Below are positions 1 to 20,347 of a stretch of 32,428 nt of DNA, in pieces. The notes beneath the pieces are model-generated. The model was not told the origin of the DNA and searched no databases. It saw only the letters and a program-made list of their open reading frames with translations. Each line of letters begins with the position of its first letter. Within the stretch, counting starts at the first letter, position 1. A program made the position numbers and the translations under genes. The stretch comes from a virus (lineage: Duplodnaviria; Heunggongvirae; Uroviricota; Caudoviricetes), in the IMG/VR virus record IMGVR_UViG_2690316184_000005, positions 1 to 32,428 of that record. The stretch is one strand, 5' to 3'.

Positions 1-1158
1 ATGCTCACCGTTAAGCAGATTGAAGCAGCAAAGCCGAAAGAAAAACCATACCGCCTACTCGATGGTAATGGCCTGTACCTTTATGTCCCTGTATCAGGGA
101 AAAAGGTATGGCAGCTTCGCTACAAGATTGACGGTAAGGAGAAAATCCTGACTGTCGGAAAATATCCGCTTATGACTTTGCAGGAAGCAAGGGATAAGGC
201 ATGGACTGCGAGGAAAGACATCTCGGTTGGCATCGATCCGGTAAAGGCGAAAAAGGCTTCGTCTAACAACAATTCATTTAGTGCGATTTACAAGGAATGG
301 TACGAGCACAAGAAGCAAGTCTGGTCAGTAGGCTATGCAACTGAACTTGCCAAAATGTTTGATGACGACATTTTACCCATCATCGGCGGTCTTGAGATTC
401 AGGATATTGAGCCGATGCAACTGCTGGAAGTAATCCGCAGATTTGAAGATCGCGGTGCAATGGAGCGAGCCAACAAAGCCCGCAGAAGATGCGGCGAGGT
501 TTTTCGTTACGCTATTGTCACCGGAAGGGCTAAATATAACCCGGCACCTGACCTTGCAGACGCCATGAAAGGATACCGCAAGAAGAACTTCCCGTTCCTT
601 CCAGCAGACCAGATGCCTGCATTCAACAAAGCACTGGCAACATTTTCAGGAAGTATCGTATCGCTCATTGCGACAAAAGTTTTACGTTATACAGCCCTAA
701 GAACGAAAGAGCTTCGTTCCATGCTATGGAAGAACGTCGATTTTGAAAACAGGATTATCACCATCGACGCCAGTGTGATGAAGGGACGCAAAATTCATGT
801 GGTCCCGATGTCAGACCAGGTGGTTGAACTTCTCACTACGCTAAGCTCAATCACCAAACCAGTCTCAGAGTTTGTTTTTGCCGGGCGCAACGATAAGAAG
901 AAGCCAATCTGCGAGAACGCGGTATTGCTTGTGATCAAACAAATCGGCTATGAAGGTCTGGAAAGCGGTCACGGATTCAGGCATGAATTCAGCACGATTA
1001 TGAACGAGCACGAATGGCCTGCTGACGCTATTGAAGTGCAGCTGGCACATGCCAACGGTGGATCTGTGCGCGGTATTTACAACCATGCTCAGTATCTCGA
1101 TAAGCGCAGAGAAATGATGCAGTGGTGGGCGGATTGGCTTGATGAAAAGGAGGGGTAG
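1..1158 (+). CDS. int: Tyrosine recombinase / phage integrase (P4-family-like); ATG lies exactly at the window edge
   Basis: 385-aa ORF; N-terminal 'KPYRLLDGNGLYLYV...KVWQLRYKIDGKEK' arm-binding-type domain and C-terminal 'GHGFRHEF...SVRGIYNHAQY' catalytic motif (His/Arg...Tyr) typical of tyrosine integrases. Confidence 0.9.
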   Translation: MLTVKQIEAAKPKEKPYRLLDGNGLYLYVPVSGKKVWQLRYKIDGKEKILTVGKYPLMTLQEARDKAWTARKDISVGIDPVKAKKASSNNNSFSAIYKEWYEHKKQVWSVGYATELAKMFDDDILPIIGGLEIQDIEPMQLLEVIRRFEDRGAMERANKARRRCGEVFRYAIVTGRAKYNPAPDLADAMKGYRKKNFPFLPADQMPAFNKALATFSGSIVSLIATKVLRYTALRTKELRSMLWKNVDFENRIITIDASVMKGRKIHVVPMSDQVVELLTTLSSITKPVSEFVFAGRNDKKKPICENAVLLVIKQIGYEGLESGHGFRHEFSTIMNEHEWPADAIEVQLAHANGGSVRGIYNHAQYLDKRREMMQWWADWLDEKEG

Positions 1159-1302
1159 TGCCACCTACATCACTGCATGCATACACAGTAGTCTTAAGGC
1201 GCATTCAGATCAACTGTCATTTACTATGATTAACCTTAATCTTGCAAAATGTTGAGGTTTTTCTTAATCTTTACACCTATTCACATTTCTGGCGAGCATA
1301 GA

Positions 1303-1854
1303 ATGATAAGCAGCAAGGAAGATTACAAGTCATACCTTCTCCTTGACGAAAAGGCTATGAGGCTTCAGGGGTCAAGGTTAAAAAATATAATATTCAACGA
1401 TATATGGAGATTCCTTAGATTGCTAAGGAGGTTGGAGTATCTTACTAATTGCAAAGGAAATAAAGTTTTAATTCTGATTACAAGACTTAGGTTACGCAAA
1501 ATTCAAATGAAACTTGGATTTTCAATACCTATCAATACCTTTGGTCCAGGGTTATCAATACCACATTATGGTAACATAGTTGTTAACGCAGGAGCCAGGA
1601 TAGGTGCAAATTGCCGAATTCATGTAGGTACGAATATTGGCACATCAGCTGGAGCAGGACTTGAATCCCCTGTAATTGGTGATAATTGCTACATTGGTCC
1701 TGGAGCAAAAATTTACGGAAAGATAGTTATAGGTGACAATTGTGCAATAGGCGCGAATGCAGTCGTTAACAAAGATTTTAAAGATGGAAATTGCACTATT
1801 GCTGGCGTCCCTGCCAAGATAACATCATATAAAACATCAAAAGGTTATATATAA
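1303..1854 (+). CDS. Hexapeptide-repeat (left-handed beta-helix) acetyltransferase, serine-acetyltransferase/WbbJ-like; candidate lysogenic-conversion enzyme
   Basis: Tandem hexapeptide repeats visible: 'VNAGARIGANCRIHVGTNIGTSAGAGLESPVIGDNCYIGPGAKIYGKIVIGDNCAIGANAVV'; visibly AT-rich. Start uncertain (ATG at 1249, 1303 or later; 1303 has a weak GAG RBS). Confidence 0.7.
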   Translation: MISSKEDYKSYLLLDEKAMRLQGSRLKNIIFNDIWRFLRLLRRLEYLTNCKGNKVLILITRLRLRKIQMKLGFSIPINTFGPGLSIPHYGNIVVNAGARIGANCRIHVGTNIGTSAGAGLESPVIGDNCYIGPGAKIYGKIVIGDNCAIGANAVVNKDFKDGNCTIAGVPAKITSYKTSKGYI

Positions 1855-3921
1855 TTATCGATAGAAAACAGTTTTCAGTCCTGTGTTAGTCCCAACAGAG
1901 GTAATCCCTCTGTAAAGGCCGACATTACTGTTGGTTGTGCTATCAACCCTAACGATTCCATCAATGTTATTTATAAGTGAATTTGTGGTTTGTACAGCGT
2001 TGACAGCATAAGATTTACTTTGTGCTGATATATTTGATGCAACTAAAGTACCAGTTGTCATTGATACACCAACGCTTGACGAACCACTCTCAAAAACTGA
2101 ATTTTTAACAATAGCTTTTGCAACCCCACCAGAAATGTTTATATCTGCTCCGTTAAATGCCTGACTGATTCTCTTGACGTCTGACACGCTGATCAGAGAT
2201 ATACGTCCACCTGATAATATATCAAAGAAGAATGAAGACCTTGTGGGATTTGAACTTGATACTGAAATATCACTTAAGTAAACATTACCAATATTAAATC
2301 CGTATCTGATTTCTAACAAAATCGCCCCGTCATAACCTTGCCCATATATGCCATTAATATTTACATACGGTGTTGTGTTATTAACTGCCCGAATTGCGAC
2401 TATGTATCTTGATCCTTCAGAGTGAATGTTATTCGCGTTTACCTGCCCGGAAGTTATCTGTAGACCTGCGCTTAGCTCATAGGTTGCTGTCGTCTTAAGA
2501 TAAACATCACTGATAGTATTGAACCCATCAGATGAATCAACACCATTGCCAATCCTTCCTCGCCCACTAACACCACGAACAACACAGGAACTACCATAAA
2601 CACTAACACAACTATACATAGGGTTAGTTGCTGAGGCGTCATCACAAACCGCAAATACATTTGTTACTGTAACATCATTGGCCTGAACTTTGACTGCTCG
2701 CTTAAGTGCATTGTAAGTATAAACGCCATCAACCTTTATTTTCTTCCCGCTGAGCATATTTGATGATGAGTTGTAAATCTGAATAACAACACCATCAGCA
2801 TCTTCCCAAGGGTTTAGCTTGTAAATCCTTACGTTACTTATAACTCCACTTGATACCTCATCATCATTTGATGGTACTGGATCAAGTGCCGTTCCTACAA
2901 GAATCCCTCGACATGGCCCAATTACATCAACCTGAATACCATTTCCAATGGTGGTAATATTATGTATTGATATGTTATCAACGACAAAATTCAATACAGA
3001 ATTTGCATCTATGAAAATACCATAAGTTAGTTGAGAACCATTACTATCAAAAACATCAACATTCTTAACTACTGGATTAACAGCCCCTGTTTTGATATGA
3101 ACAGGCCTTCTAATTGCCATCATATTGCAGTTAACTTTAATATTGTTAAGCATGCATGAGTTTACTGTTATAAATGATCCTTCATCTCCGATAGCAACAA
3201 TTTCACCATTAATCAAATCTTTCGTAATATTAATGGTGCTGGCTTTAACTGTAGTTCCGTTAAGGTCCACATTCAATCCGTGCGCCATAATAGATTCAAT
3301 TGAATATTTCGCATCAGCACTCGTATCGATATACTGAGATGGCCAAACCAGTGTGTTATGAGGTGAAGAGTATTTATAAGATAGGCCATTCCTTGTTAAA
3401 TATAACTGTGATGCTGATACCGAAAACCCATCGGCAAGACCTGTAATTCCCGGAGCATATTCGTAAATCTCACCTGAGGATGTGGTGATTTTAAAACCAA
3501 CATTTGGATCTGAATCCATGGCACCATGTAATGCCCCATTTACTAAATTAACCCCACCAACACCATCTAACTCCTGTCTTAGTTGGTCAGGGTCATACTT
3601 CAGCACATTAGGAAAATAGAACTGCTGCGCACCATACGCATCATATACAGCCATAGAATGGCCTTGCACAGTTACGAACTTGGCAATCTGCCCGTTATAT
3701 ACCGGGTAACCAGCAGCGTTAATGATGATTGGTTGCGAAACAGGAATGTGAGAACCGTCTTCGTTTTCCACATAAACCTGAATCTGGTTTTCAGGATTTA
3801 CCGGATCAGTGTCAATTTTACCGATATAAATTTTGCCATTGGCAACCGCTTTAAAAGAACGCGCCATAGTGAAGAGTTGCGAAGGCATGCTTACCACAAC
3901 ATTTGCGGTGATATCTGACAT
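1855..3921 (-). CDS. Tailspike protein: P22 gp9-type N-terminal head-binding domain fused to a divergent C-terminal receptor-binding/enzymatic domain
   Basis: N-terminus '[58 protein letters not shown]...[14 protein letters not shown]' matches my recollection of the P22 tailspike N-terminal domain; the rest does not resemble the P22 endorhamnosidase. Start at ATG 3921 (GGAG upstream), not track start 3969. Confidence 0.9.
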
Positions 3922-4309: not shown

Positions 4310-4379
4310 AAATCTAGTTTCCGGCTAAAATGGCATTTCCTTCATGATATCCTGTGAAAAACTAAGGAGAGTTAGCCAT

Positions 4380-4865
4380 ATGAAAAAATCACTGTTAATT
4401 ATCCCGCTTCTGCTGGTTGGATGCGCAAAAGTAAGTGACTATCAAGCAAGTTGCGAACAACGCTATCAAAAGCTTAGCGATATGGCTAATTGCCTTGATA
4501 CCAGTGTGAAGAACGACTCACGCATGGCATCAGCACCAACACCTAAGCTGTATGTCCTTGCTGCAAAGATGCTCGGGCAAGGTGTCGATGAAGGCAAGAT
4601 AAGTGACGCACAGGCAAGACTTGAGCTTCAGAATCTTTATGTTCAATTACAAAGCCAAGAACAAGCCCAACAAATAGCACAAAGCCAAGCATTCCAGCAG
4701 GCTTTATTGAATTATCAGGCTGTAAACACAATGCAAGCGATCGAGCAAAAAGCGCGCCAGCCTGTTATAACTCAACCTTACCCAACACGCGTTGACACAT
4801 ATACAAACTGCAATTCAGGATTTGGAAACACGGTAACATGCAACAGTAGCAGTAACATCAGATAA
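4380..4865 (+). CDS. Predicted lipoprotein with Gln-rich coiled-coil-like region; function unknown (candidate superinfection-exclusion/moron protein)
   Basis: Signal peptide plus lipobox 'MKKSLLIIPLLLVGC'; AAGGAGA RBS 9 nt upstream of ATG 4380; same strand and immediately downstream of mnt. Confidence 0.65.
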   Translation: MKKSLLIIPLLLVGCAKVSDYQASCEQRYQKLSDMANCLDTSVKNDSRMASAPTPKLYVLAAKMLGQGVDEGKISDAQARLELQNLYVQLQSQEQAQQIAQSQAFQQALLNYQAVNTMQAIEQKARQPVITQPYPTRVDTYTNCNSGFGNTVTCNSSSNIR

Positions 4866-20053: not shown

Positions 20054-20347
20054 ATCAACCTCGTCTAGTTGTTCGTCATAGATTCAGTGGCTGGCGGTGA
20101 CGATTCCGCTTTTCGGGAGCTACCCTAGCCACTGTTTTATTCTATCCGATGTCTTTCCATCAGTCCGCCACCACAAAGAATCTTTTTTGCCATAAGGCAG
20201 GAGGTTCATCTTTCAGTGGCTGCCAGTGTTATTTCCCCACTTACTGGCTTGGGTTGTTTCGCGGTACTGCCGTAACTGGTTGCCCAGAATAAATTCCGGT
20301 TTCATTATCAAGCCCACCCGTAGATAGGCTTTGTAATGACTACATGG

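Follow-up and report, generated by a model that had tools for sequence, protein, structure and literature searches.

The sequence analysed here, a stretch of 32,428 nucleotides from a Caudoviricetes virus (IMG/VR record IMGVR_UViG_2690316184_000005, positions 1 to 32,428; hereafter the window), belongs to a P22-like Escherichia coli prophage at the tRNA-Arg gene argW, adjoining yfdC. Between its integrase and its tailspike lies a small gene (1303-1854) for a predicted soluble left-handed beta-helix (LbH) acetyltransferase, and we propose, with a probability of roughly 60%, that this enzyme O-acetylates the repeat units of the host O76 O-antigen and so masks the receptor from the cognate tailspike. 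The argument, which is drawn from sequence comparison, starts from the linkage of the gene to one family of tailspike receptor-binding domains (RBDs) and from its replacement, beside related RBDs, by an unrelated O-acetyltransferase, and continues with a relative in an O-antigen cluster and with the O-antigen type of the host strains.

The acetyltransferase gene was present in only 3 of 5426 complete E. coli genomes, each time with the same tailspike, and one of these three genomes, KD602, is 100% identical to the window. Carriers with a P22-like backbone amount to hundreds of assemblies, and the exact protein appears in 777 index blocks. In 15 further copies the 144-bp spacer upstream of the gene, the gene itself and the tailspike form a single block with 98.6-100% identity, and the spacer came with the gene in each of these 15 E. 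coli copies, those at two other chromosomal insertion sites among them. Since the int alleles of the three complete-genome carrier prophages diverge by 3.5-5.4%, with 0.3-0.7% divergence in the acetyltransferase block, the block sits on different phage mosaics. The acetyltransferase protein also stays identical in two decayed prophages, that of K99B (L002 13048-18200), which IS100 and IS3 elements have cut short, and a second one (L013, 8352-9955) whose tailspike is split by an IS3-family insertion; the intact gene in such remnants is a hint of host-side selection.

The pair was also found on other backbones. An epsilon15/TL-2011b-like prophage (L004) carries an acetyltransferase 86% and an RBD 89% identical to those of the window, with abutting stop codons, and there the RBD is mounted on a T7-tail-fibre-type N-terminus; the DNA homology with the window spans 1302 (start codon) to 3402. 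In a prophage of Enterobacter hormaechei (L122) the corresponding identities are 94.5% and 84%, and in a Proteus-type prophage (L121), whose tailspike has a Tail_spike_N domain, they are 75% and 63%, the two genes overlapping by 4 nt. A zero-gap or overlapping junction between acetyltransferase and tailspike, as in the window, is thus seen in all three, and in all three the pair adjoins the lysis genes, not att/int. The N-terminal part of the window tailspike, which matches the N-termini of the P22 and Sf6 tailspikes in the PDB, is the sole tailspike portion common to more than 1100 E. coli genomes, and by these comparisons the head-binding domain (3574-3921) belongs to the phage backbone and lies outside the cassette. 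The AlphaFold2 model of the RBD (pLDDT 90.9) is an all-beta, right-handed beta-helix whose nearest PDB folds, at marginal Foldseek E-values, are glycan epimerases, lyases and phage tailspikes (AlgE4, CBA120 TSP2, phi29 gp12, HK620); no SGNH esterase signature was found in it.

Beside further relatives of this RBD the LbH gene is exchanged for a non-homologous one. In two loci (L124 7130-8977 and L125 2729-4570, both on the - strand) a membrane Acyl_transf_3+SGNH (AT3-SGNH) O-acetyltransferase occupies the same convergent position, next to RBDs 61% and 58% identical to that of the window, and one of these carriers shares its backbone with the Proteus-type LbH copy. The AT3-SGNH gene of L125 is split in two open reading frames (ORFs) and so may be frameshifted. 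Altogether a convergent O-acetyltransferase from one or other of two unrelated families was present in 6 of the 8 RBD contexts examined. The two exceptions, neither of which has an acetyltransferase beside the RBD relative, are not obviously temperate but virulent-looking contigs: one is a siphovirus encoding DNA polymerase A and an SNF2 helicase, the other a contig of 127 kb that bears several tailspikes. The replacement of LbH by AT3-SGNH is the strongest evidence that we have for O-acetylation of the glycan recognised by this RBD family as the relevant activity. An earlier sequence-only reading of the window had suggested that the enzyme could alter the surface glycan to which the tailspike of the same phage binds, and its inheritance as a unit with the RBD, the AT3-SGNH replacement and the O-antigen-cluster relative described below all strengthen this suggestion. 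We would give even odds to a broader proposal, namely that the RBD and a receptor-masking O-acetyltransferase make up a portable cassette which temperate phages (P22-like, epsilon15-like and others) exchange across Enterobacterales, with SAT-like LbH and AT3-SGNH enzymes as interchangeable partners (SAT, serine acetyltransferase).

The best clue to the function of the acetyltransferase, as far as sequence can tell, is a chromosomal gene (L005), the closest non-phage relative examined. Its product, also of 183 aa, shows 72% identity with the window protein and 90% with the Proteus-prophage copy, with which DNA homology ends exactly at the ORF ends. The gene stands at the end of an O-antigen-type cluster of 39% GC (ugd, GT4, epimerases, wzx, AT3-SGNH) that adjoins trmL-cysE-gpsA-secB, which we take to be the Proteus/Providencia O-antigen locus; unlike the prophage gene, it is co-directional within a biosynthetic operon and has no tailspike. 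The GC content of the cassette (0.37) is close to that of Proteus-type loci (0.36-0.39) and consistent with an origin in such a host. Members of the family at 50-61% identity extend from Proteobacteria to Bacteroidota, Firmicutes and archaea, and their surroundings in species-representative genomes point in the same direction: 19 of the 94 immediate neighbours in 47 such genomes were GT1/GT4 glycosyltransferases, and Wzy_C (12), Wzx (9), AT3 (5) and Ugd (4) followed, which places these members, by gene content, in Wzx/Wzy polysaccharide clusters. Among distant viral members, the gene adjoins a tail-fibre, tailspike or baseplate receptor-binding gene in 6 of 7 contigs, and in a podovirus-like prophage of Massilia aerilata a 61%-identical copy is convergent with a beta-helix tail protein. 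Distant LbH genes labelled 'serine acetyltransferase' also occur in or beside the tail or tail-fibre modules of Streptococcus thermophilus 987-group phages, Hafnia phage yong2 and a P2-like coliphage; examples of distant LbH genes in phage records are NC_031069 17362-17706, MZ516527 19190-19516 and ON470591 505-822.

The host strains narrow down the glycan. Between galF and gnd, KD602 carries a wzx/wzy cluster of the O76 family. This cluster was present in 5 of the 5426 complete E. coli genomes, and all three complete-genome carriers of the cassette were among those five (naive hypergeometric p about 4e-10, ignoring relatedness). The carriers are not clones, as their chromosomal flanks differ by 7-26 substitutions in 6.7 kb and their his alleles differ. 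The strain FORC_042, with an O76 cluster and an empty argW site, is a natural non-lysogen control. Besides three glycosyltransferases and galE the O76 cluster encodes an LbH acyltransferase of its own, and it has a gene for the Und-PP-GlcNAc 4-epimerase on one side, upstream of galF, and ugd on the other, downstream of gnd (Und-PP, undecaprenyl diphosphate); the O76 repeat is probably a GalNAc/GlcA tetrasaccharide with one O-acetyl group. KD602 itself has two O-antigen loci (NZ_CM145715.1 1,836,000-1,862,000; L009/L010), the O76 wzx/wzy cluster and an O8 wzm/wzt polymannan cluster between wzzB and hisI, and the other O76 strains examined have O76 only. The O8 mannan was considered as shared receptor and rejected: JNE132847 and K99B lack the O8 locus, which is found in 309 genomes. 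Since two of the three carriers lack O8, O76 is the glycan that they share. The target had been given earlier as O-antigen or capsule; the host association favours the O-antigen, likely O76, and makes a capsule less likely.

The position of the gene is that of a seroconversion module, an accessory gene between int/att and the tailspike and outside the late operon. In the RefSeq genomes the order is argW and then intS, and the genes that fill the remainder of the window, for ejection, tail, head, portal, terminase, lysis and immunity, follow the P22 order. At the same site the K-12 prophage CPS-53 has yfdGHI (gtrABS) behind intS, on the intS strand and at a similar distance, and in CUS-3 the order is int, neuO and an endosialidase tailspike. 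The acetyltransferase gene therefore lies in the classical seroconversion slot, between the integrase (1-1158, +) and the tailspike (1855-3921, -), and the equivalence with the O-antigen glucosylation cassette of P22, proposed from the sequence before, is corroborated by CPS-53. The gtrABC/gtrABS modules of P22 and CPS-53 are alike in lying directly downstream of intS at argW on the int strand and in being seroconversion modules, but they comprise three genes instead of one, act by periplasmic glucosylation via Und-P-glucose and have no sequence relationship to the window gene. A megablast search of the phage collection with the gene gave a match to the end of int alone, so that no sequenced phage there has the gene. 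In Kapi1, a P22-like argW phage that modifies the O-antigen, the candidate genes are different ones, and none of them altered the lipopolysaccharide (LPS) profile when over-expressed singly.

The gene itself is well delimited. The ORF reported before on the + strand was upheld, with its ATG at 1303, its stop at 1852-1854 and a product of 183 aa, and RefSeq/PGAP calls an identical CDS (WP_000625801.1, 'serine O-acetyltransferase') in the 3 complete E. coli genomes. A longer reading from an upstream ATG at 1249 is unsupported, and the start is placed at 1303 because 31 of 31 homologues share a conserved MIxS N-terminus matching that position. The search returned 5379 homologues at E<=1e-5, and dN/dS against the 86%-identical copy was 0.07; we regard the ORF, on these comparisons, as a real, constrained gene under strong purifying selection and not as a chance ORF. 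Its GC content of 0.370 is below that of the window (0.479) and of the integrase gene (0.478), and in this respect it had rightly been described as poorer in GC than its neighbours. The description does not hold on the other side, where the 570 C-terminal codons of the tailspike are as AT-rich as the gene (GC 0.381); GC at third codon positions was 0.29 for the acetyltransferase, 0.53 for int and 0.28 for the C-terminal part of the tailspike. The low-GC island consequently runs from 1159 to about 3573.

Pfam Hexapep (PF00132) matched residues 123-157 of the product with 47.2 bits against a gathering cut-off of 27 (E=1.3e-12), as expected of the hexapeptide-repeat acetyltransferase that had been predicted, and no transmembrane segment was predicted (maximum Kyte-Doolittle 19-residue mean 1.14), which agrees with the cytoplasmic location suggested at the same time. 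The protein, in which hexapeptide coils follow a short helical domain at the N-terminus, is by sequence a predicted soluble LbH acetyltransferase of the SAT-like branch. It matched the PHROGs family phrog_2154 ('unknown function') nearly from end to end (E=1.7e-45; residues 13-178 on profile positions 17-183 of 185) and did not match Acyl_transf_3 (PF01757). The AlphaFold2 model of the monomer had a pLDDT of 70.7, with 51-69 across most of the repeat region and below 50 at the C-terminus, and a Foldseek search of the PDB with this low-confidence model gave nothing significant, the best hits being SATs at E ~0.08.

In the model that we propose, the acetyltransferase would be expressed from the prophage in the lysogen while the tailspike is silent, which is plausible because the gene and the late operon are on opposite strands. 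The enzyme would use acetyl-CoA in the cytoplasm and, being soluble and having relatives in Wzx/Wzy clusters, would acetylate the O76 repeat unit on the cytoplasmic face while it is still Und-PP-linked, before flipping; WcaB and WcaF in colanic acid synthesis likewise act on the Und-PP-linked unit before it is flipped. Wzx/Wzy would then export the acetylated unit, and the prophage enzyme would in this way either place one more acetyl group on O76 or make its acetylation more complete. The acetylated polymer would be a poor ligand and substrate for the cognate beta-helix tailspike, which would neither bind nor cut it, so that superinfection would be blocked and the O-antigen of the lysogen spared from its own tailspike.

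Several points weigh against this model. What the enzyme acetylates and at which position, when it is expressed and that it blocks the tailspike are steps of the model that we infer. The O76 association comes from three genomes only and is uncorrected for phylogeny, and the O76 cluster already encodes an LbH acyltransferase. Upstream of the gene there is no consensus promoter, and between the convergent genes there is no terminator: a sigma-70 consensus scan of 1050-2600 gave fewer promoter-like matches than in shuffled sequence, with no recognisable signal in the spacer, and an intrinsic terminator scan of the same region gave two terminator-like sites, both within the tailspike gene and none at the junction. 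Expression in the lysogen is therefore an assumption. The two genes of the cassette also diverge unequally, as is seen from their dS values relative to the epsilon15-like prophage (acetyltransferase 1.42, RBD 0.48) and from the 94.5% against 84% identity to the Enterobacter copy already mentioned, which implies recombination between them although the stop-to-stop junction has been kept. In addition, one Proteus-type acetyltransferase (100% amino acid identity) is convergent with two unrelated tailspikes, one (L121) having a beta-helix RBD related to that of the window and the other (L021) being a G7C gp63.1-like SGNH esterase (PDB 4QNL, E=5e-93); the esterase pairing misfits simple masking because an esterase would remove acetyl groups. 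Finally, the distant members on viral contigs follow the tail gene in the same direction and are probably expressed late.

The alternative suggested by the database label is that the protein is a true serine O-acetyltransferase, an auxiliary metabolic gene boosting cysteine synthesis. Apart from the PGAP name, it can appeal to the best PDB sequence matches, which are CysE enzymes (E=5e-11, 29% identity), and to a C-terminal Ile as in CysE, but we consider it very improbable. All curated NCBIfam models scored far below their cut-offs (EpsC NF041874, 79.3 against 150; cysE TIGR01172, 63.2 against 210.65; WcaB TIGR04016, 38.7 against 194.65), as did PRK11132 (44.9 bits against 397); SATase_N (PF06426) had no match in the protein, which at 183 aa compares with 273 aa for CysE and has an N-terminal domain about 90 residues shorter. 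In CysE Asp143 and His158 form the catalytic dyad, and Asp92, Asp157, Arg192 and His193 line the serine/cysteine pocket. In the alignment to CysE only His158 is kept, as H88, the SAT-like catalytic His (H107 is invariant in the family), and the other 4 of the 5 mappable active-site and serine-pocket residues are replaced (Asp143 by Ser74, Asp157 by Pro87, Arg192 by Glu121 and His193 by Ser122). Identity is 29% to a genuine enterobacterial CysE and 26% to the host WcaB, and the homologues lie in polysaccharide clusters, in the case of L005 with a genuine 273-aa, SATase_N-containing CysE encoded only 1.2 kb away. Strong homology to CysE, which had been named beforehand as the finding that would speak against a glycan-modifying enzyme, was thus not observed, and judging from these sequence features the protein is not a serine acetyltransferase and the label is wrong. 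The C-terminus of the protein reads ...SKGYI (1840-1854), and CysE (...GDGI) docks into CysK via its C-terminal Ile; the ending is YI or YL in close relatives and is not kept in homologues at 50-60% identity, and because it is lost there the likeness is probably coincidental.

Two other explanations do without masking of the receptor. According to one of these, which we regard as unlikely, the enzyme acetylates a host molecule unrelated to the tailspike receptor (colanic acid, enterobacterial common antigen, LPS core, capsule or a small molecule) as a host-benefit moron, for example in immune evasion, and lies near the tailspike because accessory genes usually settle near att. The slot does take varied accessory genes (gtrABS in CPS-53, neuO in CUS-3), NeuO also affects interactions with neutrophils and serum, the gene is intact in the decayed prophages of K99B and L013, which suggests a benefit to the host independent of the phage, and the unequal divergence of acetyltransferase and RBD fits this explanation as well. 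Chance co-location near att, however, explains neither the pairing with the same RBD family on four backbones, down to 63% RBD identity, nor the substitution of an AT3-SGNH O-acetyltransferase beside further RBD relatives, and in three of those backbones the pair lies by the lysis genes and away from att. According to the other, which seems to us slightly less likely again, the acetyl group belongs to the receptor itself, where recognition by the tailspike would require it or be tuned by it, and the cassette keeps hosts usable or acts during lytic growth. Tailspikes of the G7C gp63.1 type need O-acetylated O-antigen, so that the identical acetyltransferase beside an esterase tailspike of this type favours it, as do the distant members that are co-directional with, and downstream of, tail genes. 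On the other hand, a prophage has no obvious gain in making its own lysogen a better receptor, the characterised cases (NeuO, GtrC of BTP1, PhiV10) all work by blocking, and the lack of an acetyltransferase beside the virulent-looking RBD relatives fits a lysogeny-specific role better than one in adsorption. Masking of O76 from the cognate tailspike remains the explanation that we prefer.

That a prophage O-acetylates its own glycan receptor is already well known from Oac of Sf6, GtrC of BTP1, PhiV10 and NeuO. The GtrC of BTP1 gives protection from the tailspike of the same phage as well as from superinfection, K1 cells are shielded from K1 phage by NeuO acetylation, PhiV10 infection is prevented when O157 LPS is O-acetylated, and prophage acetyltransferases track capsule type in Klebsiella and Acinetobacter. 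The AT3 enzymes among these (Oac of Sf6, GtrC of BTP1, PhiV10) share with the window protein the proposed role, O-acetylation of the receptor that blocks the cognate tailspike or phage, and AT3-SGNH genes share its convergent position beside related RBDs; yet they are unrelated integral-membrane Acyl_transf_3 proteins acting after export, whereas the window protein is soluble and must act in the cytoplasm. The sequence-only reading had drawn this distinction from the membrane Oac of Sf6, and it stands; what it had overlooked is NeuO of CUS-3, by which a soluble enzyme of this kind is not unprecedented.

NeuO is like the window protein a soluble LbH acetyltransferase, encoded in the int-tailspike slot of a P22-like argW prophage, and its partner tailspike degrades the glycan concerned. 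It belongs, however, to another LbH branch, with similarity over about 50 generic hexapeptide-repeat residues (32% identity), and is without the SAT-like N-terminal helical domain of the window protein. Its gene contains a phase-variable AAGACTC tract (19 copies in CUS-3; poly-psi domain), whereas no such phase-variation repeats were found in or upstream of the window gene, where the only repeat was a 10-mer tandem repeat of 1.9 copies. Moreover neuO lies on the tailspike strand and the window gene is convergent with the tailspike, and the target of NeuO is an ABC-transporter capsule, that of the window enzyme more likely a Wzx/Wzy O-antigen. CysE, WcaB and 'EpsC'-type enzymes resemble it in having a short N-terminal helical domain followed by the LbH domain and in the conserved catalytic His, and differ in the low identity (26-29% to CysE and WcaB), in falling below every curated cut-off and, for CysE, in the serine-pocket residues and the length of the N-terminal domain. 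What appears to be new is a SAT-like LbH enzyme outside the NeuO, AT3, CysE, WcaB and EpsC families that is organised with a tailspike RBD as an exchanged unit.

Prophage-driven O-acetylation alters serotype, phage susceptibility and immune recognition. A seroconversion role of this gene would be invisible to annotation and to in-silico serotyping, since it is labelled 'serine O-acetyltransferase' (in hundreds of E. coli assemblies) or 'unknown function' (in PHROGs). If RBD and acetyltransferase do form a unit, the gene abutting a temperate tailspike would predict both the glycan targeted and the means by which the lysogen escapes, which would aid host-range prediction and the choice of therapeutic phages, and by extension phrog_2154 would be a widespread family of glycan acetyltransferases coupled to phage receptor-binding proteins. 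The O76 strains, the tailspike and the acetyltransferase also make a matched set for asking how a single acetyl group defeats a depolymerase.

The features of the locus are collected in Table 1. The spacer upstream of the gene showed no conservation with the K-12 intS-yfdG or CUS-3 spacer beyond the end of int.

Table 1 Features of the acetyltransferase-tailspike locus in the window and of the Proteus-type loci compared with it
Feature	Position	Strand	Remarks
IntS-type tyrosine integrase	1..1158	+	Pfam Phage_integrase, Phage_int_M, Arm-DNA-bind_3; GC 0.478
Low-GC spacer 5' of acetyltransferase	1159..1302		GC 0.375; presumed promoter region; accompanies gene in E. coli
LbH acetyltransferase gene	1303..1854	+	183 aa, soluble; SAT/WcaB-like branch; candidate O-antigen O-acetyltransferase (lysogenic conversion gene)
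Convergent stop codons TAATTA	1852..1857		Acetyltransferase and tailspike stops back-to-back, zero spacer, no terminator
Tailspike C-terminal receptor-binding/enzymatic domain	1855..3573	-	Right-handed beta-helix; GC 0.381, GC3 0.28; second half of low-GC cassette
Tailspike N-terminal P22 gp9-type head-binding domain	3574..3921	-	Pfam Head_binding E=1.1e-66; GC 0.437
Proteus-type acetyltransferase/tailspike loci	L021 686-3049 (-), L021 25-624 (+), L121 5001-8104		

Two further features of the window lie outside this locus. At 4344-4865 (+; PGAP start 4380), between the genes for an mnt-like repressor and a gene-16-like ejection protein, where P22 has sieA, a predicted lipoprotein of about 161 aa is encoded, Q-rich, with a MKKSLLIIPLLLVGC lipobox and no Pfam match; it is a possible candidate for a superinfection-exclusion lipoprotein. 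At 20073-20135 on the - strand, in the region that separates the small terminase subunit from the lysis genes, the Rfam int-alpA RNA motif (RF02996) scored 42 bits against a gathering score of 35.8.

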